Below are positions 14,710 to 36,848 of a DNA stretch of 64,000 nucleotides, one piece after another. Every line of letters begins with the position of its first letter. The stretch's first letter is position 1. Position numbers and translations under genes: made by a program. The DNA is from Candidatus Xenobia bacterium (GTDB taxonomy: Bacteria; Vulcanimicrobiota; Xenobia; Xenobiales; QWHO01). The notes below the pieces were generated by a model. The model did not search any database. It saw only the letters and a program-made list of their open reading frames with translations, and was not told the origin of the DNA. The DNA lies in NCBI GenBank assembly GCA_045863235.1, contig BTUM01000009.1:32001-96000 (forward strand). The letters are read 5' to 3'.

Positions 14710-17700
14710 TTAGCGTTTGCGAACCCGCACTCCGCCCACCAGCACCGCTTCGCTCTCCTCGCGCAGACGGGGGCCGAGCGACTCCAGCAATCGATCCATG
14801 GCCGCCTCAGGGGCCGAATCGAGCACCACCTCGGGCAGGCGCTCGACCAGTGCCAGCGCCCGCTCCGGCTCCTGATTCTCGAAGAACGAGCTGAGCGCGC
14901 GCAGAGCCGGAGCGGCCAGCGGGGCCGGCACGCGGCTCAAGATCTGTAGCGCTCTCGAGCGCTCGGCGAGCTGCAACTCGGGGGTGCAGGCCAGCTCGAG
15001 CAGGCCGTCGACCGAGCGCTGGCCCAGCTCGTCCAGGCAGTAGGACTCCCCCCCGGCGTCGGTCATCTTGAGGTCCCAGAAGTCCAGTCCCGGATACTCC
15101 GAGCTCGAATCAGTGCGCAGCAGGAAACGCAGGCGCACCGTCTGCCCGCCGTAGGCTGATAGATCCACCTCCTGGCGACCCGAGCCGTTTCCGGTGTAGA
15201 GCGCCTTCTCTTCCCAATCCTTCTTGCCCTCGGGCAGCACCTGCAGATGCACCCGGTCAGGTCCCTTCTCGAACTGGTAGCGAGCCTCGAACGAGAGTTT
15301 TGCTCCCGGCGGAATCCAGGTAGGAGGTGATTCCAGGGCGGCATTCTGGTTCGACCTGTAGTTGCCCGCCGGGCTGTCGCTCCAGCCCCGCAGGGTGCGT
15401 CCCCAGTCGCCGGACGGCTTCCAGCCGGCCTGGCCGAGGCCATCGCGAAGCTTGCCCAGGGCTTCCGTTCCGGCCTTGTCCAGGCTGGCCTCGCGCAGCG
15501 CCTCCAACAGCCGCTCGGGCTCCACCCCCAGAGACCGAAACCGGGCACACTCGCTGCGCAGGTCGACCTCAGCCTGCAGCGCCTCCAGAGGCATTGAACC
15601 GATCTCTTCCCAGGCCTGCAGCGACCTGCTCACACCGCTGATGGCTACCAGGCGCTCCAGCTCCTTGTGCCGCTCGGGCTCATCGGTCAGGGTCGTGATG
15701 GCCAGAGCGGCGCACAGGCCGTGCGCCTTGACAAGCTCGGTCAGAGGCTCGAGAGGACGGTCCATGCGCGATATCAGCTCGTCGCGCAGGGGGGCGAGAT
15801 CCTCGGGCCTGTCGCTGAAGAAGATCTGCCCTGTGGAATCCTCCACCCTCAGGTTGCGCAGCTTGAATCCCTGTCCCTCACTGCTCGAGTCGGAGGTCAT
15901 CCGCCAGCGAAGCTCCACGCGTCCCTCGCCCAGGTCGCTCAAGTCGAGGTCGTCTGTTCCCTGGGGAACCTGACCGGTGTAGTGCTGCAGCGGCTGCCAC
16001 TTGCCCCCTTCGGGACGCACCTCCAGCCGCACGAAGTCGCTGTTCTTCTCCAGGTCGCACTGGTAGTCGAACCTCACTCGCGCCCCCTGCTGGCCGGCCA
16101 GCGAGATCACCGGGCTGGTGAGGCTGTTGTTGGCGTTAGAGCGATAACGCCCAATGCGGTTGTCGGCCCACACGCCTGGCTCGCTGCGCACCCACCCCTC
16201 GGTCTGCCACGGGTGCAGCGACTCGAGCAGACCTTCCGGGAAGCTGGTGCCGCGCAAGGCACGGCTGTCGGCCAGGCAGCGATCGAGCAACTCGGGCTGC
16301 TGCAGGCGGTTGGCGATCTGGGTGGCGAGCTGGAAGGCCTGCACCGAGTCGCTCTGAACCTCGGGGAAGAGGGCGGCGGTGGCCTCCACGCCCACGGCCA
16401 CGGCTGCCTGGCTCAAAGACTCGGCGGGAGCCTGCAGCCGGAAAAGCCGCAGGGCCTGGTCGGGCCTGAGGTCCTGGCTGAGGCGATCGACCCGCTCCAG
16501 CCCCTCCAGGTCGCGCTGGCGGGCCAGCTCGAGGATCTGGTCCAGAGTGGCTCGCTGGCTCCGGGCCTGGTCGCTGAAGACCAGTTCGGGGGGCGCCTCG
16601 GGTTGAAGGGTCGGACGGGCCTCGACCCGGAAATCGGCCAGCTCGAGCCCCTCGCCGTTATTGGAGCTGTCCGTCTTGAGGCGAAAACGCAGCTGCAGCA
16701 TGCCCTGACCGAAGGGAGCCAGGGACAGCTTGTGCTCGGCCCAATCGCTCTGGCCCGTGAAGGCTGCAATGCCCTCCCACTGCTGGCCGTCGCGCGAGGC
16801 TTCGAGCAAGACGTTGTCGGCATTGCGCTCGAGATCGTGGCGAGCGCGGAAGCTAACCGTGGGAGCGCTGTGATGGCGCAAGTCCAGCACCGAAGTGGTG
16901 AGGGATGCGTTCTGACCGTGGCGATAGAGTCCCGGGCTATCGGCCCAGGCGCCATCTCCAATCGAGTGCCAGCCGCCTTCCTTGCTCCAGGTCGGGCAGG
17001 TGCGCTGCACCAGCCGGGCCACGTGCTCCTGGCTCTCGGGGGGGAGCTGGGCCAGCTCGCGATAGACGGCCATGACGGAAGACAGGTCGTCGGGGGTGGG
17101 GGTCAGCCTGCCGGCTGCCTGGAAGCTGGCCACCATCCGGTCTACCTCGCCAGGGAAGGGGGCCAGGGCGGCGGCCGCCTGGTTGCCCAGGCGCTCGGCC
17201 AGGTGGGCCACGCGTTCAACGCTCTCGGGGGGAATTGGACCCAGGCGCAGGGCCTCGGCCACCGAGCCGGTGCCCGCCACCAGCTGTTGCAGGGGCTCGA
17301 TGGGCAAGCCGCCGGCCACCAGTCTGGCCACTTCCGCAGCCAGGGCCGCCCGCTCCTGGGAGCGATCCTGCTGAAACAGCGAGCGGGGGGCAGCCTCGAA
17401 GCGGGGGCGTCCCTCGAGCGAGATATGGCTCAGACTGACCCCTTCCTGGGTCACCGAGCTATCCGAGCTGAGGCGGAAGCGCACATGCACGGGAGCGCCC
17501 TGGTAGGCAACCAGCGAAACCTGGTGCTCGGTCCAGTTGGACTTGTCGGTGATCTGCCTGAGGGCTTCCCAGCTCTTGCCGTCGGCCGAGGCCTCGACCA
17601 CCAGCCAGTCCCGGCCCTTCTCCAGCTGGGTCTGGCAGCGAAAAGAGAGCGTGCACTCGCTGGCGTGGCGAAGGTCGACGACCGGCAGGCTGAGCGAGCT

Positions 17701-18789
17701 CTGCTGGTTGTCCTTGTAAGGTGCGCCGGGGCTGTCGTCCCAGACTCCATCTTTTTCAGCCCAGGTGTGCTGAGCAACGATTCGCGGCACGGCGGCGTCC
17801 AGCCACTTGCGCAGGGCGTCCTGAGCGGCCGGCTCCTGGCGGGCCAGGCGGGCGGCCGCGGCCGGGTGCTCCAACCGCCCCAGCCAGTCGAGGTAGGCCG
17901 GGTGAGTCGCCAGGGGAAGCGCGTCCAGCTCCCTGGCGGCCGCATCGAGCAGCTCGGGCCGGAGCACGACCGGAGCCACCTGCTCGCGCGCCTGGCAAAG
18001 ACGCTTCTCTTTCATGGCCTTGCAGACCGCTTCGGGGTCCTGGCCGACCTGCCAGCTGCCCAGCTCGCGCTCGTGCCAGCTCAGGGGCACCTCGGAGGCG
18101 CGGGCACGGTAGAGCTCCAGGGCGTCGCTGCGGTAGCCTTCCTCCTGCAGCATCCGCAGGCCGCGGGCCAGCTCGGGCTGCTCCAGCGCCTCGGGGCCCA
18201 CCTGACCCAGCAGATAGGCGAGCATGGCGACGTCCTGGCCGCTCTCGAGCGACCTGCCGGCTGAGGTCACGCTGACCCCGGAGGTCAGCCTCAGGTAAGC
18301 CCCCCAGGAGCCCACGGGCTGCCCTTCGTGCTCGAAGACCTGGCCCGAGCGCTCGAGCTGCTCGAGCTGCCGTGCCAGCTCGGGGCTGGGCAGGCGGCTC
18401 ACCTCGCCGGCGTGGAAGGCGGTCAGCACGGCCAGGTCGTCGGGTCCGCGCAGGGGCAGCCAGGCGCCTTCGGGCGCTCGCACCCTGAGATCATCGGGGT
18501 CCTTGTTGAGCAGTGCCTGACCGGCCTGCAGGGGGGTGGAGGGCGTCCAGCCCAGCGAGCCTACCAGGCGCTTGCGCTGGAACTCGAACCCACGGCTCTT
18601 GAGCCCTTCCAGGGCGGCCACCGCTCCGGCCAGTCCACCCAGCGCCCCTTCGCTGGCGCTGGCGCCTGGCAGACCGGGACGCCTGCCGCTCAGCTCGACC
18701 TGGTCGGTCGGGCCGGCAGCCGCTCGCGGCACGATGCCGGACGCGGGCATGAAGGAGGCTCTGAGTGGCTCCACTCGCATGGAGGCCAT
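14710..18789 (-). CDS. Large repeat protein: four jelly-roll (immune inhibitor A/MAM-like) domains separated by helical spacers, with a C-terminal VGGVRVRKR tail
   Basis: Four repeats W.D(S/N)...Y....N..L...DL...LE...D...W...TG...(V/L)RF/W...DSS...G. Start is 18789 or 18780. No Sec signal peptide. Confidence 0.85.
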   Translation of the reverse strand: MASMRVEPLRASFMPASGIVPRAAAGPTDQVELSGRRPGLPGASASEGALGGLAGAVAALEGLKSRGFEFQRKRLVGSLGWTPSTPLQAGQALLNKDPDDLRVRAPEGAWLPLRGPDDLAVLTAFHAGEVSRLPSPELARQLEQLERSGQVFEHEGQPVGSWGAYLRLTSGVSVTSAGRSLESGQDVAMLAYLLGQVGPEALEQPELARGLRMLQEEGYRSDALELYRARASEVPLSWHERELGSWQVGQDPEAVCKAMKEKRLCQAREQVAPVVLRPELLDAAARELDALPLATHPAYLDWLGRLEHPAAAARLARQEPAAQDALRKWLDAAVPRIVAQHTWAEKDGVWDDSPGAPYKDNQQSSLSLPVVDLRHASECTLSFRCQTQLEKGRDWLVVEASADGKSWEALRQITDKSNWTEHQVSLVAYQGAPVHVRFRLSSDSSVTQEGVSLSHISLEGRPRFEAAPRSLFQQDRSQERAALAAEVARLVAGGLPIEPLQQLVAGTGSVAEALRLGPIPPESVERVAHLAERLGNQAAAALAPFPGEVDRMVASFQAAGRLTPTPDDLSSVMAVYRELAQLPPESQEHVARLVQRTCPTWSKEGGWHSIGDGAWADSPGLYRHGQNASLTTSVLDLRHHSAPTVSFRARHDLERNADNVLLEASRDGQQWEGIAAFTGQSDWAEHKLSLAPFGQGMLQLRFRLKTDSSNNGEGLELADFRVEARPTLQPEAPPELVFSDQARSQRATLDQILELARQRDLEGLERVDRLSQDLRPDQALRLFRLQAPAESLSQAAVAVGVEATAALFPEVQSDSVQAFQLATQIANRLQQPELLDRCLADSRALRGTSFPEGLLESLHPWQTEGWVRSEPGVWADNRIGRYRSNANNSLTSPVISLAGQQGARVRFDYQCDLEKNSDFVRLEVRPEGGKWQPLQHYTGQVPQGTDDLDLSDLGEGRVELRWRMTSDSSSEGQGFKLRNLRVEDSTGQIFFSDRPEDLAPLRDELISRMDRPLEPLTELVKAHGLCAALAITTLTDEPERHKELERLVAISGVSRSLQAWEEIGSMPLEALQAEVDLRSECARFRSLGVEPERLLEALREASLDKAGTEALGKLRDGLGQAGWKPSGDWGRTLRGWSDSPAGNYRSNQNAALESPPTWIPPGAKLSFEARYQFEKGPDRVHLQVLPEGKKDWEEKALYTGNGSGRQEVDLSAYGGQTVRLRFLLRTDSSSEYPGLDFWDLKMTDAGGESYCLDELGQRSVDGLLELACTPELQLAERSRALQILSRVPAPLAAPALRALSSFFENQEPERALALVERLPEVVLDSAPEAAMDRLLESLGPRLREESEAVLVGGVRVRKR

Positions 18790-18823
18790 GATGCCCGGGA
18801 GGGCTCAAAGAAGCGTGAAAAGG

Positions 18824-19650: not shown

Positions 19651-19764
19651 ATGAGTATTGCAGCCGTTGCCCACCCCCGCACCGAGCGGTCGCAAGGAGA
19701 GGGTCCCATCCCTCAGGCCAGCAAGGCGGTTCCTTCATCGCGCAAGGAGCGAACAGCTCGATGA
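19651..19764 (+). CDS. Possible 37-aa peptide (MSIAAVAHP...)
   Basis: TAGACT 7 nt before the ATG; stop overlaps the next start (ATGA); N-terminus nearly identical to the next gene. Confidence 0.4.
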   Translation: MSIAAVAHPRTERSQGEGPIPQASKAVPSSRKERTAR

Positions 19765-20276
19765 ACATTGCAGCGGTCGCCTCCACCTCCGCCCCCACCC
19801 GGCCGCCCCAGGCCGTGGCCGACCAGCTCGAGAGCCTCGATCTCACTCTGCGCCACAGCATCGAGCGTTACGAAGGCTCGATTCCCGAGCTGGAGACGAC
19901 GGCCAGCCAGGGCCGCCAGCGGGCTGGCCTCTGGCTGGGCGGAGCCGGATTTGCGCTGGCTCTGGGGGCGGCCGGTGGCCCGCTGGGGATGCTGGCCTCG
20001 GGCCTGGTGGTGGTGCCGGCCGCGGCCTTCGGGCTGCTCTCACTGGCCCGCTCCTCGGCGGCCCGCGAGCGGCTCGAGATCGCCCGTGAGGCAAGCCAGA
20101 CCTTCTCCGAGCTGCACGCCCAGGTGGGCAAGCTGCGCCAGGAGGCCGACGAGGTGGTGCGCCGCCACCAGGTGGAGTCTCTGGCGCAGGCCTTCGAGCA
20201 GCAGCAGAAAGCCGTCGAGGAAAGAGAAAGTCACATTCGGATCGGAGGCGTACGCCTCAAACGGAGGGAGCCATGA
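19761..20276 (+). CDS. Hypothetical protein with a Gly/Ala-rich hydrophobic hairpin, coiled coil and C-terminal IRIGGVRLKRR tail
   Basis: AAGGAG RBS; 171 aa; ATGA overlap with the next gene. Confidence 0.8.
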   Translation: MNIAAVASTSAPTRPPQAVADQLESLDLTLRHSIERYEGSIPELETTASQGRQRAGLWLGGAGFALALGAAGGPLGMLASGLVVVPAAAFGLLSLARSSAARERLEIAREASQTFSELHAQVGKLRQEADEVVRRHQVESLAQAFEQQQKAVEERESHIRIGGVRLKRREP

Positions 20277-21301: not shown

Positions 21302-21308
21302 AACGCAA

Positions 21309-21716: not shown

Positions 21717-22310
21717 CTACGGTTGGTTCTGAATGTACTTTAATCCGTGCTCAAAGCTATGGATCAGCTTGCAACCAAGCGCCTGTAACTGCGTCTCCAC
21801 GTTTGGAACCCCGAAGTCCTTGCTGTTCCGGTTGATGTGACAGCTCTGTGCAACCTTATTGTTTTGCAGATCTGTCAGGATACTGGCCAGCACAATGGCG
21901 TCGCCCGGGGAGAGGTAACTCTCGTGGATCCTGGCGTCCTGCAGAGTTCCCAATTCCAGCGGTAAGATGCGCGCCGCTTTGAGCAGCCGATCCCTACTTT
22001 GATCAAACTGAGTTTCCGCGTCCTGGATACTCCTGGTTAGCAAGTCGACAGAATGGTCGAGTGCCCGAAGACCCTCCGAGTATGAATCATTCCTGGCGAG
22101 TTCGGACCGCTGGCGCCTCAGATCCAGTTGTAGGTCTTGCCGCTTGATCTTTAGCCGAACCAAGGTGTTGAAGGGCTCGACCAGAGAAAAAGCTGGAATG
22201 GCCAGTTCTATCGATCGACCCGGGAGTGCCAGAATGTCTTGGCAGGCCTGAGACTGTTCCTGCCCGAGCACAAGTTCCAGCACAAAATTCGTCTCGCAGT
22301 AAACTCTCAC
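21717..22310 (-). CDS. PIN-domain protein
   Basis: RVYCETNFVLEL...DAIVLASI...NRNSKDF. Confidence 0.8.
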   Translation of the reverse strand: MRVYCETNFVLELVLGQEQSQACQDILALPGRSIELAIPAFSLVEPFNTLVRLKIKRQDLQLDLRRQRSELARNDSYSEGLRALDHSVDLLTRSIQDAETQFDQSRDRLLKAARILPLELGTLQDARIHESYLSPGDAIVLASILTDLQNNKVAQSCHINRNSKDFGVPNVETQLQALGCKLIHSFEHGLKYIQNQP

Positions 22311-22741
22311 CGAGATTGGAGAACGCTTCCGCCATGAATGGCCGAAGGAAGTCCCGACTCATGCAATTCGCCTTGTTCCGTGGGCGAGTCGACTAAGTCC
22401 TGAAGCCATTGGCCCACGATGAGCTCATAGGCAAGGGGGTGCACTTCCGAGGGCTTAATTTGCGCGCGCTCGAAGTAGGGAGCAAGAATTGGACTAGCAT
22501 TCACCACAAAGTCCGGCTCGGTCGAACGACTCTCTGGCCTCCAGATGAAAAACTGTTCGGGAGTTGCGAGTAAGAAGTAAGAGCCCTTTACGGCCCACCC
22601 AGACTTCAGCAAATTGTCTCGAAAGCGGCTGGCCCAGGCCGAAGAGGCTCCCTTCAAGCTCTTCGCTTCCACAATCAGAGCCTGGTTTCCCAAGGCATCC
22701 AGGAGGAAAAAATCAAACTTATCGTCTCTGTCGGATCGCAT
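22307..22741 (-). CDS. Hypothetical protein coupled to the PIN gene (PD-(D/E)XK-like motif)
   Basis: FDFFLLD...LIVEAK; GTGA overlap with the PIN gene; TAGAAT upstream. Confidence 0.7.
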   Translation of the reverse strand: MRSDRDDKFDFFLLDALGNQALIVEAKSLKGASSAWASRFRDNLLKSGWAVKGSYFLLATPEQFFIWRPESRSTEPDFVVNASPILAPYFERAQIKPSEVHPLAYELIVGQWLQDLVDSPTEQGELHESGLPSAIHGGSVLQSR

Positions 22742-22862
22742 CTTACTTTGCATTCTACACCCGGACGCTCGTAGAGGGAAGGATTCGGGTGCTTGGCAGC
22801 AATGCTCGGTTTGGCCACAATGTTCCGTTCAGCGCAGTGCATCCCGGCACGCCGACGCGGAC

Positions 22863-22966
22863 GAACGTCGCTCCCACGCAGAGAACCTACGCGGGAACCG
22901 CAGAATTCGGCTCAGTTCTGGTTCCGGGCACTGAGAGGAGGTCACGTTGATCACCGTTTGATCACC
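22863..22966. repeat. att-like repeat copy 2
   Basis: GAACGTCGCTCCCACGCAGAGAACCTACGCGGGA (imperfect inverted repeat TCCCACGCAG/CTACGCGGGA); TGATCACCGTTTGATCACC at 22948-22966. Confidence 0.65.
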
Positions 22967-22969
22967 TAA

Positions 22970-23344
22970 CCTACTGATTGGGTAACGTATGATACGACCA
23001 CCAAATTCGAGCCTGACATGTTCGTCGCGCGGGTGGAGGGGGACTCTATGGAGCCACTCATCCCCAATGGCGCCTACTGCCTCTTCCGTTATATTCGAGA
23101 CATGCCTCGGGAAGGCAGGCCCGCTCTCGTCTGGCACGACGGGCTCAGCGATCCTCACACAGGCGGAAAGTATACCCTCAAGTATTTCACGGTTGAACCC
23201 CCAGTTGCGTGGCGCAAGCCTGGTCGGGTCGTGTTGAAGCCTGCAAACAAGAATTACGAGCCGATTATTCTTCCATTGGAGGGAGAAGGAGTATTCCGTG
23301 TAATTGCAGAGTTTCTGGAAGTCCTGAAGGGCGCAGGCACCTAA
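22970..23344 (+). pseudogene. 5'-truncated S24 (LexA-like) peptidase-domain gene fragment
   Basis: DWV...MFVARVEGDSMEPLIPNGAYCLF...YTLK...LKPANKNYEPI; the frame opens right after the TGATCACC repeat (TAA at 22967); no HTH. Confidence 0.65.
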
Positions 23345-23383
23345 TTAGGCGCACTGGTGACTTAACCATATCAATCCGCGACA

Positions 23384-25672
23384 TCATTCTTGGAACTGCT
23401 CTGCGAGCGCCCAAAAGGCATCAATCCTCACGTCGCCCACGTCCCCCGTCTGGGCCTGAAGGAATCTCTCCTTGTCAACCTGGAACCGCACGAAGTTCTT
23501 GGCTTTCCCGCTGGTTTGTCGATGGACGTCCCGCAATACACCCGAGTCGATGCCAGCCTTAACAACTTCTTCGGCTAGGTCGCCAAAATCTGATTCGAGA
23601 TCTTCGACTGCTACATCAGAGGTTTTATTTGACTGCCGGACGAGCCTTGTAACGCACTTGATGAGCTTTGGCTGTACCTGCCGAACAGTTTCCCGTGCTG
23701 CAACTATGTCCTCAGTAAAATCTGTGGTCGCTCCGCGCGCCTGAATAGCCTCTAGTATCTGTACTGGGTTGAACAGTGTTTCCGTGTTCTGCTCACTTTC
23801 TCCACCTCGCGAATTGTCCAGCACTTCCAGTCGCCTAAATTCACAGTCCAGGAACCGTGATGAAATAACTGTAGATGAATCGACTTTAAAGCCATCGAAG
23901 AGGCACCTGATAAACTCGCATCCAATGAACTGCGTTCCACCAAGGTCTACGTTGACAAACTTGCAGCCGTGAAATGTCACCCTATCATACTTGTTCTTCA
24001 TTAGGCACTCATCAGCGAAGTTCAGGTCATGCAAGGAGATACCGTCCTCGCGCGAGTCATTTAGAAGGCCCGCGCATACTGCAGACGCGTTCGTGGACGC
24101 CGTGTAATCGTGATGGCTTTTGCCGATGGTTGATAAGACCTTAGTTACATTTCTTAGGCTGCCTCCTTCGCGCCGAAAAAACCAAACAGTCCAGTCAGTT
24201 AACTCTGGACTCAACTCGCGTTCGGATAGTAGAATCGAGAGAGAGTCGGTATCTTCGGACATCATTATTACGGCGAGCCGAGCGCCTAAGAAATACGCAA
24301 AAAAACTCTCATGCAGGAATCCAAAGGTAGCTGTAGCCCCCTCCTTTGGGACAAGGGCAGCGTGCGTAGGCACCTTCTCAATAATCTGGGTCTTAACTGC
24401 TGCTTCGAGCTGGAGGTGCATCAATCCGAGTTCTGCGGCTATTCGGAGTTCGTCGGCTGCAAGCCGAAATGCTCCGGATCGCCACATTTCCTCGGCAACT
24501 GCACCTAGCATTGCGATGTGCCCCGCGGTATCAAGTAAGGGCTTTCGCGTCTGGGTCTCTATCCATTTTTCCCATTCCTCTCGTTCGAGCAAAATGCGGA
24601 AAACGTAGTCGCTGCGCTCGAGGTGACTACCGCCAACGTCTATGTTCTTGAATCGTTCCTTCTCAACTACCCAGAGTTTGGCTAGACGTGTGAGGAAGAT
24701 CGGGTGGAAAATCAGTTGCTGGTCATTCTCGAAGGTGTTCAGGAGTTCACGCAGGTCCCGCTCGGCGTCCTCGGACCCCAGCGACTTAAATACCTCGATA
24801 GCCTGGTTGACCTTCCATCCCAAGAGTTGAATGCCGACGGTCGAATACGCGCCACGTTTGGGTTGGAGATGTGTCCTGATACTTGCCGAAACTTGGTAGA
24901 GGTCGAAGAAGCCTTCTCGAGCCGACAAAATCACGGACCCTGCAGTATCCATTTGGTCAACCAGTTCGGTTATTTTGATGAATGCGTCCCGACTGCCCAC
25001 CCGTGCCACCAACTCGTCGAATCCATCGAGCGCCAGGACTATCCAGCCCCATTTCATGCAGGCCACAACCTCCCGTTGCGTCAGAGGAAAGTCGTAGGTG
25101 TTGTTCAATGAGCCTGCTACAGCATCATCAATATTTCCCACATAGCGACCCAACAGGTCGACAGGAATCAAGATTGGAGTTGGATGCTCTTGGGCGCGAT
25201 ACTCATTGGCACACTGAATAGCCAGCCACTCCAGGAGGGCGGTCTTGCCTTGTCCAGCCGGCGCCATTAGTTGGATAAGTTGAGTATTAGCTACTGGAGG
25301 TGCCGCGATAATGCTACGAAGCCTGTTAAGAACACTATCTTCTTCAGTGCCACTTCCTGTTGCATATGCGCGAAAACGGGCATGGCCATCGATAAATTTC
25401 GCCGGGCGCTTCTCCCAGTTTCGCTGAAGAACGCGCGATATCTGTTGCGCCAACCTCGGCAAGCCGAGCACCTCGGACTGGACGTATTGCGTCACAGGAA
25501 CGACTTTCTCACCATCCACCACTCCAAAGCCGATCCCCGCGATCTGTGTCAACTCAAAGAGAGTCTCGCTTCCGTGGCGGAAAAGGCTCACGACGGAGCC
25601 CTCTCGATGGTAGTTTGCCGGGTCGGAGATCAGTTCTTGAAATCTCAGGTCTATATCTTCAATGCGAAGCAC
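23384..25672 (-). CDS. NACHT/STAND NTPase with a pentapeptide-like repeat region
   Basis: APAGQGKT Walker A, VLALDGFDE Walker B, VILSAR, FGFLHESFFAYFLG winged-helix motif, FHGCKF..FIGCEFIRCLF repeats. Confidence 0.88.
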   Translation of the reverse strand: MLRIEDIDLRFQELISDPANYHREGSVVSLFRHGSETLFELTQIAGIGFGVVDGEKVVPVTQYVQSEVLGLPRLAQQISRVLQRNWEKRPAKFIDGHARFRAYATGSGTEEDSVLNRLRSIIAAPPVANTQLIQLMAPAGQGKTALLEWLAIQCANEYRAQEHPTPILIPVDLLGRYVGNIDDAVAGSLNNTYDFPLTQREVVACMKWGWIVLALDGFDELVARVGSRDAFIKITELVDQMDTAGSVILSAREGFFDLYQVSASIRTHLQPKRGAYSTVGIQLLGWKVNQAIEVFKSLGSEDAERDLRELLNTFENDQQLIFHPIFLTRLAKLWVVEKERFKNIDVGGSHLERSDYVFRILLEREEWEKWIETQTRKPLLDTAGHIAMLGAVAEEMWRSGAFRLAADELRIAAELGLMHLQLEAAVKTQIIEKVPTHAALVPKEGATATFGFLHESFFAYFLGARLAVIMMSEDTDSLSILLSERELSPELTDWTVWFFRREGGSLRNVTKVLSTIGKSHHDYTASTNASAVCAGLLNDSREDGISLHDLNFADECLMKNKYDRVTFHGCKFVNVDLGGTQFIGCEFIRCLFDGFKVDSSTVISSRFLDCEFRRLEVLDNSRGGESEQNTETLFNPVQILEAIQARGATTDFTEDIVAARETVRQVQPKLIKCVTRLVRQSNKTSDVAVEDLESDFGDLAEEVVKAGIDSGVLRDVHRQTSGKAKNFVRFQVDKERFLQAQTGDVGDVRIDAFWALAEQFQE

Positions 25673-26375
25673 ACTGGCCTCCTATCGAGGTTATTAGGAC
25701 CCCACGATTCTCAAGTGAAGTGTCGCAGTAATACGTTTTGGTGTGGGACCGAATAACAGACAAATTTGCGCCGTTGTGGATACTGGCGGCCAGCAATGCG
25801 GGTGAAAAGTCTACGTCATCGGAAACTAGGCAGATACACGAATCGGAAGAGGATGAGGCTAACGAAAGGAGGTCAGTTGCGATGTGGACGTCAACCTGCT
25901 TCTGCTCGTTTCTTTCAAAGTAATCGATATATCGATGTGCGCAGCTTGCTTCTGTGCAAGCGCGACTGTTTCCCATCCATCGCTGAACGTCCTTTAACTG
26001 ACAGCGCGCATTCTGGCAGTCGAGTTTACTAGAGGCACGCGGTTTGGAGCGCCTGATGGAGACGGTATGAGTAATGTGAGGGTCGGCGTGCGAGGCAAGG
26101 ATTAGACGGTCGGCAAACTCAAAGTGAACCCGGACCAGGAGACCGTAAGCTTTCAGCAACGCGGGGCACTGTTGTTGATAATAATTGGCCGCCGCATAGC
26201 GGGCCTCCGTGGCGAACTGGTCTCGAAACCAGCCACCATAAGCGCGGAAAACCACGTTAGCTATTCGGCCGCTTCGCGTCAGGAGGGTTTCGCGGCAGCT
26301 GTGCACCCACGATGTGATTACTTCGGCCGGCGGGACGTCCGAGAAATTGTCGTGGTCGACAAGAATATAGTTCAC
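25659..26375 (-). CDS. NYN-domain (PIN-fold) ribonuclease-like protein
   Basis: ILVDHDN, EQKQVDVHIATD, LVSDDVDFSPAL; Cys-rich insert; overlaps the NACHT start. Confidence 0.82.
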   Translation of the reverse strand: MNYILVDHDNFSDVPPAEVITSWVHSCRETLLTRSGRIANVVFRAYGGWFRDQFATEARYAAANYYQQQCPALLKAYGLLVRVHFEFADRLILASHADPHITHTVSIRRSKPRASSKLDCQNARCQLKDVQRWMGNSRACTEASCAHRYIDYFERNEQKQVDVHIATDLLSLASSSSDSCICLVSDDVDFSPALLAASIHNGANLSVIRSHTKTYYCDTSLENRGVLITSIGGQCASH

Positions 26376-26459
26376 ATCAGGTCCTGCGCCACTCGATGCT
26401 CAAGTCCCTTTGAGTCTGAAGCGACCGCCAACAGAGCCACCTCACACCCGACCAGCATT

Positions 26460-26699
26460 TGATCACTTTTTGATCACCGGACTCAAAATCACGCCCGATC
26501 ACCACGCCCTCCCAGAAACACCAAAACTCACCAAAACCAGCGCCACCTCTAATCTCCAGCACACCCAACATAATGCCAGATCACCCAAGATCACGCCCCT
26601 GCTTATCTACCCGGGGAACCTACATGGGGCCTCTTCGATGGCGCCGCCGACTGGGTTTGCGGGGCGGGTGGGGGCACCGTTTCCGAGCCGGCATGGCTG
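26460..26699. repeat. att-like repeat copy 3
   Basis: TGATCACTTTTTGATCACC (26460-26478) and further GATCAC copies; core GGAACCTACATGGGG at 26615 followed by TCTTCGATGGCGCC..GGGTTTG.GGGGCGG..CACCGTTTCCG as in copy 1. Confidence 0.65.
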
Positions 26700-26726
26700 C
26701 GCGATCTGCGGAGCGATCTCGAGACC

Positions 26727-27209
26727 TTACTCTTGTCCGGGGTCCAGGATGGTCAGGTCGGGAAAGTACTTCCCATAATATCCTCGATCACGCGTCACAA
26801 GCTGATCACTTTGCACGCTGGCGTGACCCCCGACCAGAAAATCAGTAATCAGGTGCTGCCTCCAAGGAATTGCCCTCTGACAGGACGAGCACGTAATCCT
26901 CTGGCCATGCCCGCATTGAGGGCAGGCTGGATGATCCGGACGTCGGCGCCGATACTCCCGCCAGGCAAGCCCTGCTCGGCTAAGCCCCTCGCGGGAGGTC
27001 GGAACCACCTGAATGCCGGTATCCATCAGGAACGTGTCCAGGGATCCCTGATTCGGGAAATGCGCCGCAAGCTCGGAATACACAACCTCACCCATGATCA
27101 GGGTGCCGTTGCGAAGGCTATCGTCGAGCGCATTCTGAGAAGCGAGTTGAAAGGGAGAGCCTGGCACCAGAACATCCAAAATTACATTGGTATCTAGCGC
27201 GGAGGTCAT
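26727..27209 (-). CDS. vapC: VapC-like PIN toxin with a zinc-ribbon insert
   Basis: ALDTNVILD, VYSEL, CPQC..CSSC, DFLVGGHA, LVTRD. Confidence 0.88.
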   Translation of the reverse strand: MTSALDTNVILDVLVPGSPFQLASQNALDDSLRNGTLIMGEVVYSELAAHFPNQGSLDTFLMDTGIQVVPTSREGLSRAGLAWREYRRRRPDHPACPQCGHGQRITCSSCQRAIPWRQHLITDFLVGGHASVQSDQLVTRDRGYYGKYFPDLTILDPGQE

Positions 27210-28083: not shown

Positions 28084-30216
28084 CTACTGAGAGGATCCTT
28101 GGGAAATCCTTGACTGGGCGGTCAGCTCCTGAAACAGCCGGGTGGTCTCGGCGCTGGGAGCCAGCTGCAGCTCCTCGGCCAGGGCTTCCTGGCAGGCCCA
28201 GTAGAGGCGGGCCACCCGCTCGGGCTGGCCGGCCCGGCCCCAGAGGCGCATCAGCTCCTGATAGGCCCCCTGGTGACAGCGGTCCACCGAGAGAAGCTGC
28301 TCGGCCAGCGAGAGCAGGCGGTCGTCCTTGCCCGCGGCCTCGGCCAGCAAGCCCTCCAGGGCCCGCACGGCCAGTTCGCGCAGGCGGCGGCGGTAGGGGC
28401 GGATCCAGTCTTCCTGGAGGTTCTCCAGCAGATCGCCCCGGTACAGGTCCAGCGCCTGCTGGAGGCGACCGGCCTTGACCTCGCGCTCGAAGTCGAGGAA
28501 GTCGACCCGGTGGGACAGATCGGTGTTGAAGCGGCAACGCCCGCGCCGGTGCTGCACCAGATCCCCTTCGCCCAGGGCCCGGCGGATGTAGGTCAGGGCC
28601 GAGTACAGGTTGGCCTGGGCGCGGTCCCCCTCCAACTCCGACCAGAAGAGATCGGTCAGGCGCTCGTCCGGCACCTCGGTTCCGCCGTGCAGCAGCAGCA
28701 CCAGGAAGAGGGCCCGGCTTTTGGAGGTCTTCCAATCCTGCTCCTTGATCTCGCGGCCCTGAAAGCGGATGCGCAGTGGGCCCAGGCCCTCCACCTCCAG
28801 GGCGGCGGGTGGCTCGGCCGGCGGACAGAGGCGCAGCCGGGCCAGCATCTCGGCGGCCCGGGGCGAGCCGGACGCTCCCAGCACCCGCTGGGTCAGCCAG
28901 CGCTCGCGAGAAAGGGCCCACTCCAGCCCCTCGGCTTTGTCCAACAGCTCCTGGACCGCCGAGGGCGCTTGCTTGGAGCCTGCCAGCTGGTAGCCCCAGG
29001 CCCGCAGCAGGCGCACCCGCACGGCTCCCCGGGCCGCTCCCTCATAAAGCCGGGTGGCCTGCTCCAGGTCGGCCTCGCCCGAAGCGACCTCCCCGACCGC
29101 CAGCCGGGCCGTGCCCAGCAGAGCCAGGATATCAGCCCGGGCCAGCCGCGAGCCCACCCTCTCCAGGGCCAGACGGGCCTGCTCGATGGCTCCCGCGGCA
29201 TCGCCGCAGGCCAGCCTGGCCGTGCCGAGGCAGAGCCGGGCCAGGGCGGACGGGTTGGGGATCGCCTCCAGCGTCTGGCGAGCCAGCTCGGGCTGGCCCG
29301 CGGCCAGGTAGGTCAGGGCAAGCCCCGCGGCCCCGCTGGGAGGCTCCCCGGCCGGGCTCTCCACGGTCCCCCCGCTGAGGGCCTGCTCGAGGCGCTCGCG
29401 CAACTCGGGCGGAGCTTCCAGCATCTGGAGACACTCCTGACGCGACAGTCCCAGGGAGGCGTCGGCGGGGTGGGCCAGGGCGTCGTAGCGAGCCACGGCC
29501 GCCAGGATCGGCTCGGCCTCGGTAAGCTGCAGGGCTCGCTCGGCCAGCTTCAAGGTGGAGCGATGCTCCCATCCCTGACGGTCGGCCGGGTCCTGCGAAA
29601 GCAGCTCTCGGCAACGCTCCAGACCCTGCAGCAAGGTGGCTCCGCCGGCCACGGCCGTGAGCAGGGCGGCCCAGGAGAGCGCCTCCAGCTCCTCGCCCTG
29701 AAGGCCGGAGAGGCTGCCCACCCGGCGGGCCAACTCGCGACGACGCAGAGCCGCCTCGCGTTCGGGGGCCAGGGAAAGCAGGCTCCACTCCCACAGGGCC
29801 AGGCTGTCGCGGTAGCTGCGCTCCTGGCTGGCCCGCCACCAGGCCTGGCGGTCGAGCCACTCCAGGGCGCGCCCCACCGCTTTCAAGAAGGTCTCCTCGT
29901 CGAAGGGCTTGGTGAGGAAGTCGTCGACTTGCAGGCGGAAGGCCTCCACCGGGGTCTCGAAGTCGGCAAAGCCGGTGATCACCACGGCCCGGGTCTCGGG
30001 GGCGGTCTGGCGCATCTGGCGCAGCATGGAGATGCCGCTCATGCCGGGCATGCGCACATCGGTGATGACCAGGTCGAAGGCGCAATCGCTGGCCGCCTCC
30101 AGGGCCCGAGCGGCCGACTCGGCGGCCGTGACCTGGTACCCCTCCTCCTCGAGCAGCAGGCTCAAGCTGCCGCGCAACAGGTCATCATCTTCTACCAGCA
30201 GGATACGTCGGGCCAC
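28084..30216 (-). CDS. Response regulator with TPR-like region and C-terminal SARP/BTAD activator domain
   Basis: ILLVEDD, DLVITDVRMPG, KPF; LGPLRI...LFW...ALDLYRGDLL...LMRLW...LAEELQLAPS. Confidence 0.88.
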   Translation of the reverse strand: MARRILLVEDDDLLRGSLSLLLEEEGYQVTAAESAARALEAASDCAFDLVITDVRMPGMSGISMLRQMRQTAPETRAVVITGFADFETPVEAFRLQVDDFLTKPFDEETFLKAVGRALEWLDRQAWWRASQERSYRDSLALWEWSLLSLAPEREAALRRRELARRVGSLSGLQGEELEALSWAALLTAVAGGATLLQGLERCRELLSQDPADRQGWEHRSTLKLAERALQLTEAEPILAAVARYDALAHPADASLGLSRQECLQMLEAPPELRERLEQALSGGTVESPAGEPPSGAAGLALTYLAAGQPELARQTLEAIPNPSALARLCLGTARLACGDAAGAIEQARLALERVGSRLARADILALLGTARLAVGEVASGEADLEQATRLYEGAARGAVRVRLLRAWGYQLAGSKQAPSAVQELLDKAEGLEWALSRERWLTQRVLGASGSPRAAEMLARLRLCPPAEPPAALEVEGLGPLRIRFQGREIKEQDWKTSKSRALFLVLLLHGGTEVPDERLTDLFWSELEGDRAQANLYSALTYIRRALGEGDLVQHRRGRCRFNTDLSHRVDFLDFEREVKAGRLQQALDLYRGDLLENLQEDWIRPYRRRLRELAVRALEGLLAEAAGKDDRLLSLAEQLLSVDRCHQGAYQELMRLWGRAGQPERVARLYWACQEALAEELQLAPSAETTRLFQELTAQSRISQGSSQ

Positions 30217-30227
30217 GCAGCCAGGCT

Positions 30228-32183
30228 TCAGGGATTCGTGGGAGGTTCCTCCCGGAGCAGCTGCTCGTGGCCCGAGCTGACCTCGAGCAGGTAGACCGGC
30301 AGCTCCTTCGGGATGCGCCCGGTGGAGAGCGAGGCGGAGACTCCCGGATAGGCCGGCCGGGTGACCCCCAGCTGGCTCAGGTGCTGTCGCAAGGACTCGC
30401 GAGCGAGCGGGCCGTTGACCACCAGCCGCACGGCGTCGTAGGCCTGAGCCGAGGAACGGCCTGGCTCCACGCCCGGAAAGAGCTTCCGAAAGCCCTCTAC
30501 GAAGGCCTGCACTGTCGGGTCCTCCGAGCCGGGGAAGAAGGTCTCACTCAGGCGCAGGCCCTCCAGGGCGGGGCCGCCGGCCTTGCGCAGGCCCTCGGTG
30601 TAGCCGGAGACATTGGAATACAGCGCGGCCTGGCTGCCGGCGGCCCGCAGCTGCACGGCGAACTCGCCCAGATAGCTGCCCGGGGCGGCCACGAAGAAGA
30701 CGGCGTCGGCCCGATCCTGCACCAAAGCTCGCACCAGCTCGCGAAAGTCTTGCGAGGCGGTGGAGTAGACCTGCTCGCGCACCGGTCCGAGCTGGCTCTT
30801 GATGGCGAAGGCCAGGTCGCGGGCCATCACCTGCTGGGGGTCATACAGCAGCCAGGGGCGCTCAAAGCCGCGCGAGCGGAACTCGCGGGCCAGCGGAGCC
30901 ACCCGCGCCTCATAGGGCACGCCCACGGTGAAGAGCCAACCGGCGTTGTCCCAGGCCCGGGGATGGCTGGCTCCCAGCGAGAGCGCGGGCAGCTCCAGGC
31001 GGGCGGCCACCAGGTCCACGGCCAGGCTGCGCTCGGAGCTGGTGGGCCCGAGCACGCAGAAAACCTGGTCGTCGCGGCTCAGCTCTTCCACCCAGCTCAT
31101 GGCGCGGTCCACCTGACCGCCATCGTCGCAGACGCGCAGGAAGACCGGGCGGGGGCTGGTTTGCTGAGCCAGGGCGGCACCCTGCAAAAAGGCGCGCCCT
31201 TCGCGCCACTCGGGGCCTGTGACGGGCACGACCAGCGGAACAATGACGGCGTTGGGGCCGAGAGTGGCGTTGCGGGCCAGGATGTGGCCTTCGGGATCGG
31301 AGGGATCTTGCTCCAGGATCCGGGCCGCCAGCACTCCTGTGCGGGTCCGCTCGCCTGCCAGCAGGGCCGCCCAGGCCTGTACGGCCAGGCGCTCGGGGGG
31401 CGGGCGCCAGGCCAGAAGGCCGGCCGTGAGGCTGGAGAGGGAGGCGATCAGCAGCAGGGCGGCCACCAGGACGGCGGCGCGGGGCACGCTCTCGGTGCTG
31501 GCCGCCGCGGGGTCGGCCTGCAGCGCCTGGCGCAGCTCGGTCAGGGAGGGGCGCCGGGTGGGGTCGCCGTCCAGGCAACGCTCGAGCAGGGACCGCAGGC
31601 GGGGGGTGCCGCGCCGGCCCAGGCTGGCCTTGAGCAGCGCGCCCAGGGCGTAGACGTCGGAAGCGGCGGTCTGGTGGGGCTCGGGAGCCGTGAATCCGGG
31701 CGTGCCCCCGGCCGCCGGGCCGGGCCCGCGACGGGCCAGGCCCAGATCCACCAGCCGGGGCCGTCCGTCGGGAGCAAGCAGGACGTTGGAGGGACTGAGG
31801 TCGACCAGCAGGATGTCCTGGCGGTGCAGCTCGCCGAGCAGGTCGACCAGTTCACGGCCCACCCGCACGGTCTCGGCCTGGCTCAGGAGCCCACGTTGGG
31901 CCAGGGTCGGGCCAGGAACCAGCTCCAGGACCAGGGCGGGCTGGCCCTCGTGGGTGAACCGGTCCACCAGCCGGGGCAGCAGGGGATGCGACAGACGGGC
32001 CAGGAGCTCGGCCTCCTTGTCGAAGAGCTCTCGCGCCGAGGCGCCCGGGCCCAGGCCGGTAGGGTCGGCCAGCTTGACTGCCCAGCGAGCGCCGCTCAGA
32101 CGCAGGTCGTCACAGAGGTAGACCGTGCTGGTGGCACCCCGGGCCAGCACCTCGACCACCCGATAGCGCTCGCCCAGGATCAC
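30228..32183 (-). CDS. Ser/Thr kinase-like protein with TM helix and LivJ-type periplasmic binding domain
   Basis: WAVK, LVDLSPSNVLL, DLG, GTPGFTAPE; VLGPTSS, QDFRELV, AQAYDAV. Confidence 0.85.
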   Translation of the reverse strand: MILGERYRVVEVLARGATSTVYLCDDLRLSGARWAVKLADPTGLGPGASARELFDKEAELLARLSHPLLPRLVDRFTHEGQPALVLELVPGPTLAQRGLLSQAETVRVGRELVDLLGELHRQDILLVDLSPSNVLLAPDGRPRLVDLGLARRGPGPAAGGTPGFTAPEPHQTAASDVYALGALLKASLGRRGTPRLRSLLERCLDGDPTRRPSLTELRQALQADPAAASTESVPRAAVLVAALLLIASLSSLTAGLLAWRPPPERLAVQAWAALLAGERTRTGVLAARILEQDPSDPEGHILARNATLGPNAVIVPLVVPVTGPEWREGRAFLQGAALAQQTSPRPVFLRVCDDGGQVDRAMSWVEELSRDDQVFCVLGPTSSERSLAVDLVAARLELPALSLGASHPRAWDNAGWLFTVGVPYEARVAPLAREFRSRGFERPWLLYDPQQVMARDLAFAIKSQLGPVREQVYSTASQDFRELVRALVQDRADAVFFVAAPGSYLGEFAVQLRAAGSQAALYSNVSGYTEGLRKAGGPALEGLRLSETFFPGSEDPTVQAFVEGFRKLFPGVEPGRSSAQAYDAVRLVVNGPLARESLRQHLSQLGVTRPAYPGVSASLSTGRIPKELPVYLLEVSSGHEQLLREEPPTNP

Positions 32184-33181
32184 GACAGGGCGGGCAGCCG
32201 CAAGAGCAGGCGGCCGTCTTCGGTCTCCAGCACTCCGCCGTGGTCACGGGCGGTCTGCTCCAGGCCCTCCAGCGGAGCCGGCAGGAGCTCGCCGGAGGCG
32301 CGCACCTCCAGCACCAACCGGTCAGGCTCTTCCCGAGTCGCCAGATGGAGACTTTCCTGGCCGCACAAGAGGTCGACGAGCCGATCGCTGAGCTGGCGCG
32401 AGTCCCCCGCAAAGCGACGCTGCAGGCTGCCCAGCTCGGTGGTCACGGCCAGGCCGTCCACCTCCAGCCGTTGGGCCGTCTCGGAGGTCATGACGTTGAG
32501 GTCCACCGGAAGCCTCACCAGCTGGGAGAAGCTGGCATTCTGCTGCACCATGTCGTAGGGCCGGCGGGCGTAGAGCAAGAGCTTGTCCACCACCGTGCGG
32601 CAGCGCTCCACCGCCTGCACGATGGTCTCGGCCCGGCGAGGGTCGGAGGAAGTCTTCTTGAGCCGGGAGGCCTCGGTCAGGATGGCCGCCAGGGGCGAAT
32701 TCAGCTCGTGGGCTACTCCCCCGGCCACCCGGGCCAGGGCCAGGAAGCCCTGCTGGGGGTCCTGTCGCTCGCCGGCGCTCAGGGCCCGCAGCAGCGGGAT
32801 CAGGGGCTGAAGCTGGTGGACGAAGGCCTGCCGACGAGCGCTGGTCGTCTCTCCCAGCCACGTCAGCACGAGGTCGGTGCCCAGCGGCTCGCCCTCGCGG
32901 GCCCGAGCCTGGGCCTCGCGCTCGCCCAGGCTGTCCCAGCGGGCCAGCAGCTTCAGGTCGGGACGCTGGAAGAGGTAGAGAGCTTCCACCCCCAGCGTGG
33001 CGCCCAGCACGGCCAGGGCCCGCACGGCAGCATCGGAGAGCGACTCGGAGCTGGCCACGGCCTGCAGCACCGCCTCCCAGCGCCGAGCGCGGGCGCGGGC
33101 GCGCAGCAGGAAGACCAGGCTGACCAGGGCGGACAGGAGGGCGAGCAGCGCCGAGACCAGCAGCAGGTTGTCAGGGCTCAC
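32180..33181 (-). CDS. Membrane histidine-kinase-like protein (HisKA, degenerate ATPase domain)
   Basis: N-terminal TM; VAHELNSPLAAI H-box; no clear N, G1 or G2 boxes. Confidence 0.75.
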   Translation of the reverse strand: MSPDNLLLVSALLALLSALVSLVFLLRARARARRWEAVLQAVASSESLSDAAVRALAVLGATLGVEALYLFQRPDLKLLARWDSLGEREAQARAREGEPLGTDLVLTWLGETTSARRQAFVHQLQPLIPLLRALSAGERQDPQQGFLALARVAGGVAHELNSPLAAILTEASRLKKTSSDPRRAETIVQAVERCRTVVDKLLLYARRPYDMVQQNASFSQLVRLPVDLNVMTSETAQRLEVDGLAVTTELGSLQRRFAGDSRQLSDRLVDLLCGQESLHLATREEPDRLVLEVRASGELLPAPLEGLEQTARDHGGVLETEDGRLLLRLPALS

Positions 33182-34949: not shown

Positions 34950-35000
34950 GGCCGGGCCTTCCCTGCAGGATCCCATCCGACCTCCGGGTAAGCCCTTTGG

Positions 35001-35366: not shown

Positions 35367-35396
35367 CCGGCCGGACACCCTTGCCGGGGGTCAGGC

Positions 35397-36848
35397 ATGC
35401 AAGACTACGCTGCGATGCTGACCTCCATCCAGAGCCAGGGGTTTCGGCTGGCCCTTCCGGGGAAGGCGGGCGATCCGCGCCTGAGCGTCGCTCTGGACAA
35501 CCTCGAGCGGGCCGGCTGGAGCTTCACCCTGCACCGAGCCAACGACTTTGGCGCCGGGCAGCCGGCCAGCGGGGCCGAAGTCGAGGCCTTCCTGGCCCGC
35601 CCGAATCGCCAGCTCGACCGCTCGATGGGCGACCGCCTGGTGGCCAGCCGGTCGGGCGGGGGCTACTTCAAGCTGGTACGCGCCGACGAGGTGGCGGCCC
35701 TGGACTTCTTCCACGGCACGGGCTCGACCGAAGGGCTGGAGTATCCCGATCTGGCCCGGAAAGTCCGAGAGCTGGAGAGCGGTGGGCTCAAGGTCCAGCC
35801 CGGAGGGGGCTCAGACGTGCCCGGCCACGACGGCTACAGCGGCTACCTGGCCCTTAGCCGGGGGGGCTCGGCCAACCTGATGCTGGGGCGCTACACGCTG
35901 GTGAACCTGAACACCACCGACCCCGCCGAGTTGGACGCCAAACTGGCCCCCTACGCCGAGAACCTGGAGCACTACCGCCGGGTGCTGCTTCCCGAAGCGC
36001 GGGCCGAGCGCCTGCAGGAGTTCATGCTGGGCGAGGTGGCCCGGTCCTTGCGTCCCCCGGTGCACCGGCTGACGCTCGAGGAACGGGGCCAACACTTCCT
36101 GCAGTTGGCCGAGGACGTGCGCCAGGGGCCGGACGGCAAGACCTGGCTGGCCGACCGCACCGGCCGCGCCCTGAAGCTCTACGACCACCTGGCCAGAGCC
36201 GCCCCGCAAGACTTTGGCGCCGCCGTGGCCCAATTGGGCCGAGTGACCCGGGTGGTGGGCGCCGAGCAAGCCCTCCAGGTCAGCAGCTACCTGCTCGACG
36301 AGCTCCCCCACAAGAGCTTTTACGCCGAAGCCCGCCAGGAGCGCGAGGACACGCTGCTGGCCCTGCTGGGCCAGAGCCTGCCGGTGGAGGTGGCCGTGCG
36401 GCTGACCGAGCGATTGGCCCTCTGCCCGCTGGGCGAGACCCCCGAGCGGCGGCGCGAGGTCTTCCTGGACCTGGTCAGGCTGCATCCGGCCCAGGCCGAA
36501 GTGCACCTGGACAACATCCTCACCTTCCACCGTCCGGGCGCCGACCTGGGCCAGGGGGCGGCCGCCTACCGGATGCTGCTGGAAGGCCTGGTCACCATGG
36601 GGCGGCCTGAGGAGGCTTCCGACGCTTACCGGTTTCTGCAGGAGGGCCTGCGTCTCGGACGTCTGTCCGGTACCCTCGAGGAGTTGATCGCGGGCTACCT
36701 CGGCAACCTGCTGGTGAGCGGCGATCCAGCCCAGGCCCGAGCTGCCATGGCCGGCGATGGAGGCCAGGGTATTCCGGTCGTGCGCCAGGAGAACGGGGCG
36801 GTGCAGGTTGGAGCCGTCCGGGTGCCGGTTCGCCGCAAGAGCGCCTGA
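35397..36848 (+). CDS. Hypothetical helical protein with C-terminal VQVGAVRVPVRR tail
   Basis: 483 aa ORF; shares an N-terminal repeat with the 14710-18789 protein. Confidence 0.8.
   Translation: MQDYAAMLTSIQSQGFRLALPGKAGDPRLSVALDNLERAGWSFTLHRANDFGAGQPASGAEVEAFLARPNRQLDRSMGDRLVASRSGGGYFKLVRADEVAALDFFHGTGSTEGLEYPDLARKVRELESGGLKVQPGGGSDVPGHDGYSGYLALSRGGSANLMLGRYTLVNLNTTDPAELDAKLAPYAENLEHYRRVLLPEARAERLQEFMLGEVARSLRPPVHRLTLEERGQHFLQLAEDVRQGPDGKTWLADRTGRALKLYDHLARAAPQDFGAAVAQLGRVTRVVGAEQALQVSSYLLDELPHKSFYAEARQEREDTLLALLGQSLPVEVAVRLTERLALCPLGETPERRREVFLDLVRLHPAQAEVHLDNILTFHRPGADLGQGAAAYRMLLEGLVTMGRPEEASDAYRFLQEGLRLGRLSGTLEELIAGYLGNLLVSGDPAQARAAMAGDGGQGIPVVRQENGAVQVGAVRVPVRRKSA

Follow-up and report, generated by a model that had tools for sequence, protein, structure and literature searches.

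What is the function of a short C-terminal tail that is shared by three dispersed proteins in the genome of an uncultured wastewater bacterium, Candidatus Xenobia? The three genes lie within a 64,000-nucleotide stretch of this genome (G000:C9:32001-96000, here referred to as the window), and encode proteins of 1359, 171 and 483 residues. The tails had been picked out in a first-pass annotation made from the DNA letters and their translations, in which they were considered candidate export or sorting signals; the three tails, their stop codons and the protein lengths were all correct on re-reading. As described below, the tail probably represents a C-terminal cargo tag; its motif is undescribed, and the machine with which it is associated is unusual. 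The carriers are likely exported by their N-termini via a flagellum-derived machine with an HrpA-like pilus, and we put at about even the chance that the tail docks them on a single partner encoded in the genome, which would sort a subclass of the cargo.

Extent and position of the tail

The genome consists of 8.36 Mb in 166 contigs and is 97.6% complete; close relatives carry the labels "bacterium CPR1" and Ca. Eremiobacterota. An untrained pattern, run over all six-frame open reading frames of the genome, gave 57 matches, of which 41 were within 12 residues of the stop, compared with 2, 0 and 2 matches in the next three intervals of equal length. A profile was then run over 5,589 crudely called genes and gave 185 hits, 172 of which were located within 30 residues of the end of the protein, five at 31–60 residues, and eight deeper. 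The enrichment at C-termini thus extends well beyond the original three proteins. We retained 176 of the 5,589 genes as carriers, or 175 once one P-type ATPase (score 17) had been removed as a false positive. When fixed windows were scored with a profile trained on the carriers, the last 45 residues scored in 173 of 4,971 proteins, and the internal, N-terminal and shuffled windows in none. The bodies to which the tail is attached fall into 85 families, 67 of which are singletons.

The consensus sequence is [VIL]-x-E-x4-[VLI]-x-[VIL]-G-G-V-x-[VLI]-[RK]-[RK]-R. The distance from the GG core to the end of the protein varies between 8 and 37 residues, and the last residue varies as well. In seven proteins the motif is internal, 181–329 residues before the end, and one of these proteins holds two copies. 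The tail therefore does not require a free C-terminus. In four of the seven (C3:76161, C3:123379, C32:68044 and C135:163 of G000), all of which belong to the regulon described below, the motif precedes a shared domain of ≈21-residue repeats. This domain had no Pfam match in the two proteins scanned.

Sequence and fold of the tail

Where two tails have identical residues, the codons are identical at a frequency of 0.454, compared with an expected 0.424. Since synonymous codon use is near background, the constraint acts on the protein, and an origin as a by-product of a repeated DNA or RNA element is rejected. We had grouped this origin with two further explanations, namely that the tail is an encapsulin targeting peptide or a RHIM-like amyloid motif, both of which were suggested by a loose resemblance of the tail to the cores of these two motifs. 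The RHIM core has the form (V/I)-Q-(V/I/L/C)-G with a following Asn; a RHIM-like core occurs in 16 of the 175 tails, with an Asn at +2/+3 in two, and an encapsulin-like core in 11. The family 1 encapsulin model (PF04454) had no hit in the genome (control positive in 3/14), although other encapsulin families were not searched for. The whole group is largely refuted, and we regard it as extremely unlikely.

Upstream of the tail is a helix, followed by a linker rich in P, G and S. Within the tail, 98–100% of the 175 carriers have a hydrophobic residue at each of positions −10, −3, −1 and +4, counted from the first G. Modeling of an alignment of 59 tails with AlphaFold produced three short strands, with a predicted local distance difference test score (pLDDT) of about 80 in the tail. 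In the AlphaFold model of the 483-residue protein, the tail was likewise three-stranded, and was separated from a confidently predicted body by a low-confidence linker. Covariation was analyzed in 173 dereplicated tails, and linked positions −8 and +6 (z 12.0; an acid–base or a hydrophobic pair), −9 and −7 (z 11.3), and −4 and +3 (z 9.6). The covariation and the two models fit a folded sheet; more specifically, the tail fits an antiparallel three-stranded β-meander of ≈18 residues, with the conserved hydrophobic residues all on one face. The β structure of the tag had been anticipated in the first-pass annotation, but as a two-stranded hairpin, whereas the models give three strands. A one-sided, exposed hydrophobic face of this kind would presumably need a partner.

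A short, terminal module behind a flexible linker, common to co-regulated proteins, might also act as a stability switch, either as a degron or by shielding the C-terminus from proteolysis, and thereby time the turnover of cargo that has not been exported. However, the final residue and the distance from the GG core to the end both vary, and neither internal copies nor fold-like covariation is expected of a terminal degron. We therefore consider a stability switch to be very improbable.

The tails in this genome are basic, with R or K at +7 in 91% of the carriers and a mean net charge of +2.2 per tail. The basic end previously noted for the three window proteins thus holds for this genome, but it is not a general property: the tails read from genus g6 keep the hydrophobic pattern but end in acidic residues. 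The basic and acidic profiles match each other at a probability of 93.8.

No match to a known domain was found in Pfam, NCBIfam, the PDB or the Atlas. The 59 tails had no convincing match to Pfam or NCBIfam models (for NCBIfam, best E 0.011, with no model on more than one of the 59), the tail profile had none among PDB sequences (best E 3.4), and the Atlas feature search with the tail had none. Fold comparison with the tail model was likewise negative (best Z 2.3; Foldseek E ≥ 1.7), which at 40 residues excludes little. Two classes of terminal signal were compared directly and rejected. The BAM β-signal has a terminal aromatic residue, and three of the 175 tails end in F or W. The sortase-like PEP-CTERM, GlyGly-CTERM and MYXO-CTERM signals combine a motif with a transmembrane helix and a basic end; the tail contains no long hydrophobic run, and the NCBIfam result given above applies to these signals too.

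The carriers

Among 84 of the 176 carriers scanned with Pfam, there were 14 PQQ-like propellers, one WD40-like protein, three MAM proteins, one HD domain and one false positive, leaving 64 unassigned. Enzymes were common among the members of the same regulon that lack the tail (21 of 64), compared with 1 of 83 carriers (p 4e-8), a comparison in which 64 of the 107 tail-less members with a strong promoter box were scanned and a stricter E-value was used for the tail-less set. The tail-less enzymes include nucleases, peptidases, glycosidases, phosphatases and acyltransferases.

A hydrophobic segment is present in 28 of the 40 carriers of up to 300 residues. This, and the almost complete absence of enzymes, would be consistent with a tail that acts after export, either by associating with itself or with other tails through sheet extension, to form a coat or lattice of adhesive and membrane proteins, or by binding a component of the prey or host and so placing the cargo at that site. 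A tail that looks folded, may sit internally and may occur twice in one protein is also compatible with such a role. On the other hand, a fixed external target, such as an anionic lipid or a nucleic acid, fits the switch from basic to acidic tails poorly, the mean net charge of +2.2 disfavors tight packing, and self-assembly alone leaves the genome-wide uniformity of the charge unexplained. Action after export, the main rival, thus appears somewhat unlikely, and we favor action of the tail before export.

The N-termini of the carriers are rich in S and P, have low hydrophobicity, and are type III-like, with an enrichment of an M-x-[IV] start and of a D-x-V-x-L-S-type motif. The absence of a Sec signal peptide, noted earlier for three proteins, was upheld: a Sec-like signal was called in none of the 107 carriers with promoter-defined starts, compared with 258 of 932 operon genes, and in 13 of all 175 carriers, compared with 1473 of 4796 other proteins. 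(The calls of Sec signals and of N-termini are simple heuristics rather than the output of a trained effector predictor.) A classifier of N-termini that had been trained solely on tail-less regulon members (cross-validated area under the curve 0.86) recognized 79 of these 107 carriers when the threshold was set for 5% false positives.

A promoter common to carriers and tail-less genes

Many of the carriers are preceded by an element with the sequence TTTCAG-N5-TTTCAG, followed by 10 nt, TAnnCT, 6–7 nt and the start codon. It was found upstream of 107 of the 175 carriers and 125 of the 5,414 other genes. In a split-half validation, it was recovered in 58 of 88 and 56 of 88 held-out carriers, against 19–20 of 1,200, and there were 151 sites in real DNA compared with seven in shuffled DNA. 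In total, the direct-repeat promoter, with its predicted leaderless geometry, has 285 sites in the genome. Of 44 genomes scanned for a strict form, 16 contained it, and these belong to four families; controls with the reversed pattern were close to zero.

OmpR/PhoB-type regulators use direct repeats of this kind, as do the SARP regulators. In SARP operators, direct repeats with an 11-bp period overlap the −35 region (PMC5930380, in the part covered), and the promoter described here shares this arrangement, but has a different repeat sequence and a predicted leaderless geometry. A possible likeness to the HilA box found no support among the papers listed and is not relied on. The genome encodes 25 BTAD proteins. 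The element probably defines a SARP-type regulon of secreted proteins. One of the 25 candidate activators is encoded in the window (28084-33181, minus strand), where the neighbors of a receiver-BTAD regulator are a HisKA protein and a kinase that carries a periplasmic-binding domain. The contigs obtained from four RNA runs were short and of low depth, and covered intergenic DNA as well as genes, so these data are uninformative on transcription.

A flagellum-derived export machine

A type III locus is located on contig C27 (G000:C27:54348-79363; L006 and L007), where the genes for a flagellar basal body and export gate are followed by pilin-like genes. The locus includes flgB, flgC, fliE, fliF, fliG, fliH, fliI, fliJ, a lytic transglycosylase gene, fliK, an FlgE/F/G-family gene, fliM, two copies of fliN, fliO, fliP, two copies of fliQ, fliR, flhB and flhA. 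After flhA come three identical genes for a glutamine-rich protein of 81 residues, one of which is preceded by the regulon promoter (score 22.6). The same type of cluster is syntenic in 14 other genomes examined.

FlhA, FliI, FliF and FliP pass the cut-offs of their flagellar models, while SctV, SctN and SctR score lower and below theirs, so the core is not that of an SctV/SctN/SctR-type injectisome. Nor does the genome encode a motile flagellum with a flagellin filament and a MotA/B stator: flagellin was not found in the genome, which is 97.6% complete (control positive in 4/14), and the sole MotA-family hit is an ExbB adjoining ExbD. The 81-residue protein had no sequence match in Pfam, NCBIfam or the PDB, but its language-model features resemble those of the HrpA/HrpE pilin clusters (0.88–0.91). 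Like the Hrp type III systems, the system described here combines a small helical protein, a putative pilin, with S/P-rich N-termini and a large regulon under one promoter motif. It differs from them in having flagellar FlhA, FliI, FliF and FliP as well as rod and C-ring genes, and Hrp effectors are not known to us to have a C-terminal tail in common.

Several other genes accompany the locus. A 533-residue protein from L006/L007 has a terminal domain similar to the 81-residue pilin-like proteins. A class III aminotransferase gene (L006:17483-18829) sits between flhA and the pilin genes, and within the same cluster in six of the 14 other genomes; a role in pilus modification is possible. Two conserved genes without a family, encoding proteins of 104 residues (L006:17162-17476) and 162 residues (L006:13791-14279), flank the pilin genes in tail-positive and tail-negative genomes, and are candidate chaperones. 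The cytoplasmic domain of FlhA is found on its own in five extra proteins (C80:28012, C3:26973, C1:377670, C106:14866 and C107:13658 of G000), two of which are fused to FliG N-terminal domains, and such paralogs are common in the phylum. Considered as partners of the tail, the extra FlhA C-domain proteins are present in tail-negative genomes, too.

Distribution across genomes

The basic tail profile had hits in 14 of 151 genomes of the phylum. The acidic finish was first seen in orthologs from G060, and further acidic tails came from G060 and G088. A second profile, built from 12 acidic and two other tails, had hits in 20 genomes, from which G018, G113, G141 and G084 were dropped because their hits were weak and not C-terminal. 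(The C-terminal position of hits in other genomes was checked on sampled loci.) The profile scans thus extended the tail from three proteins to ≈175 in this genome and to 16 tail-positive genomes of the 151, which span at least three classes. Carriers in distant genomes retain S/P-rich N-termini and often have propeller bodies.

The pilin query had hits in 53 of the 151 genomes. All 16 tail-positive genomes were among these 53, and there were none among the other 98. For comparison, flagellin passed the cut-off in 48 genomes and FliP in 142. The phylogenetic profiling suggested at the outset thus supports a link between the tail and a secretion machine.

In a wider search, 19 of 20 tail hits among 1.84 billion representatives were C-terminal. 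A strict back-translated pattern, run against 185,579 species genomes, matched at 33 loci, eight of which were C-terminal and 25 not terminal. Four of the eight are labelled Eremiobacterota/Vulcanimicrobiota, and the other four (L213, L219, L221 and L229) come from two assemblies labelled Burkholderiales. The latter contain tailed proteins that include close orthologs of the 1359-residue window protein, and their labels are therefore probably wrong. The only such hit outside the phylum was a Caldilineaceae protein (P0011), in which, by eye, a tail-like segment at residues 356–392 lies ahead of a CHAT-like domain.

Function of the tail

Because proteins with and without the tail share both the promoter and the style of the N-terminus, N-terminal type III export is the simplest explanation for both, and the tail would do something extra. 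We infer that the carriers are secreted, leaving the cell by an N-terminal signal through the non-motile machine derived from the flagellum, with its HrpA-like pilus. The tail would then be a second, modular tag, folded autonomously on its P/G/S linker, and present on a large subclass of the type III cargo. One module occurs on many unrelated bodies, and its charge is uniform in any one genome yet reversed in another lineage, which suggests that the producer itself encodes one partner for it. The hydrophobic face of the tail may bind this single cognate partner. The partner would most likely be a chaperone or a sorting factor, which would retain cargo that is non-enzymatic, membrane-active or adhesive and pass it on to the export gate as a class, or wave, of its own. 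In flagellar systems, chaperones attach to the C-terminal regions of cargo proteins and dock these on FlhA (PMC8527033, in the part covered), which makes a general chaperone or sorting factor the first choice.

Among the closest parallels are the sites on late flagellar substrates (FlgN-FlgK/L, FliS-FliC and FliT-FliD), which are also C-terminal, belong to cargo of a flagellar-type gate, and bind a partner that docks the cargo on FlhA. The known chaperones, however, each serve one or two structural subunits and bind disordered sites, whereas the tail is an apparently folded motif on ≈175 unrelated proteins.

The tail had originally been likened to the C-terminal signals of type IV and type IX secretion systems (T4SS and T9SS). 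The existence of ≈125 tail-less co-regulated genes with similar N-termini, and of seven internal copies, makes it improbable that the tail is the actual signal for export. The T9SS C-terminal domain of Bacteroidota is similarly a single β module at the C-terminus of very many unrelated proteins, including some with choice-of-anchor J domains. T9SS cargo has a Sec signal and an Ig-like domain of ≈70 residues; in contrast, the tail has ≈18 residues, its carriers have no Sec-like signal, and no NCBIfam sorting model matched it. C-terminal T4SS signals are net-positive and unstructured. The tail resembles them in its basic end and in the lack of a Sec-like signal, but differs in its folded hydrophobic core, its internal copies and its acidic variant. 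Thus, while the export half of the original proposal is not supported, in view of the tail-less genes, the internal copies and the acidic tails of genus g6, its chaperone or assembly half is the best reading at present.

Several observations weigh against a chaperone-like partner, or against the connection of the tail with the C27 machine. Known binding sites for flagellar chaperones are disordered (PMC8527033, same part), and the tail looks folded. There was no recurrent chaperone-like family among 565 genes flanking the carriers, and no gene specific to tail-positive genomes in the type III loci, covered in part, of eight positive and six negative genomes. FliS was not found in the genome, and FlgN and FliT were not searched for. 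The likeness of the 81-residue protein to pilins is a language-model resemblance to clusters in which 23–55% of the members carry the family. No promoter was found ahead of the flgB operon or of the other two pilin copies, and in the window it precedes solely the 1359-residue gene and neither of the other two carriers. In genus g5 the promoter is present while the pilin query had no hits, which means that the promoter and this particular pilin do not always go together. No C-terminal tail hit was obtained in 37 of the 53 pilin-positive genomes, including genus g4, which has the promoter, although a diverged version of the tail could escape the profile, as the acidic one did at first. Finally, the nested distribution is that of related, non-independent genomes, and the tail-positive ones tend to be larger.

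The genome also has 23 hits to PilB/PilT/T2SS-type (T2SSE-family) ATPases, where T2SS denotes the type II secretion system. Together with the strongly C-terminal position of the tail and the lack of a Sec-like signal, these hits raise the question of whether the tail is an export signal for another machine, related to type IV pili, T2SS or Tad. However, T2SS cargo normally requires a Sec or Tat signal, the carriers share their N-terminal style and promoter with tail-less proteins, and seven of the copies are internal; a contractile sheath was not found in the genome, at the completeness given above, although VirB4-type systems were not searched for. Export by another machine is therefore quite improbable, and a docking tag on cargo of the flagellum-derived machine remains our preferred reading.

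More broadly, we tentatively suggest, at somewhat less than even chance, that in the Eremiobacterota the basal body of a flagellum was remodeled into an injection machine with a pilus, for which a genome-wide C-terminal sorting tag with one co-evolving receptor then evolved. If so, ≈175 cargo proteins, or 3% of the proteome, would be sorted ahead of, or apart from, the ≈125 tail-less, often hydrolytic proteins. Type III secretion would then have a second, transferable recognition arm, and the tail would provide a sequence key to the secretome of a possibly predatory lineage. Type III cargo is notoriously hard to recognize by sequence. Here, three independent marks (the tail, the promoter box and the style of the N-terminus) point to ≈300 candidate substrates in a single genome and can be applied to its relatives as well, and they make the lifestyle of Ca. 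Xenobia and its kin testable. The system hints at a way in which the export gate of a flagellum could come to sort hundreds of proteins that are not flagellar, and would offer a small, portable tag–receptor pair with natural basic and acidic versions. The machine, in which a flagellar basal body is found together with an HrpA-like pilin but flagellin is missing, also bears on the origin of injectisomes from flagella.

Literature searches, whose coverage did not extend to subscription papers, found no description of the tail or of the machine. Relatives have been termed putative predators and were scanned with TXSScan, and the parts of that paper that were covered make no mention of the tail (PMC9259500). 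In the covered part of another paper, the phylum appears solely in a list (PMC10469934).

The window carriers and neighboring genes

The 1359-residue carrier (14710..18789, minus strand) has an S/P-rich N-terminus with a D-x-V-x-L-S motif, followed by InhA-like MAM and choice-of-anchor J domains, and its tail motif is at 14713..14769 (minus strand; profile score 37.0). Orthologs in L213, L219 and L232 have the same tail at their end. The regulon promoter is located at 18778..18820 (minus strand; score 22.4), and consists of a direct repeat with an 11-bp period, a 10-nt gap and a weak −10-like hexamer. The true start of the gene is probably three codons downstream, at 18780; the ATG is 7 nt past the −10-like hexamer, and a leaderless geometry is predicted.

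In the 171-residue carrier (19761..20276, plus strand), there is a helical region as well as a hydrophobic segment around residue 66, and the tail motif is at 20211..20267 (plus strand; profile score 38.2). No family and no regulon promoter were found for it. The 483-residue carrier (35397..36848, plus strand), for which no regulon promoter was found either, was modeled as two α/β repeats and a helical solenoid, with the low-confidence linker at residues 456–460 preceding the tail. Its tail motif is at 36777..36833 (plus strand; score 33.1), and the modeled strands comprise residues 463–465, 468–471 and 474–477. When this model was compared with known structures, generic helical repeats were the sole matches. 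The three proteins were initially thought to have different cores. Those of the 1359- and 483-residue proteins, however, are not entirely unrelated: they belong to one 35-member single-linkage family, and have a weak N-terminal repeat in common (E 5e-4).

Between the second and third carriers, at 21717-27209, two PIN proteins, an NYN protein, a NACHT-pentapeptide protein and an S24 peptidase are clustered in what looks like a defence or mobile island. A 380-residue protein at the start of the window (6-1148, plus strand) had no Pfam or NCBIfam match. Further downstream (44261-45586, plus strand), a DUF7379 protein has a C-terminal end similar to those of two tail-less regulon members on contigs C2 and C67.

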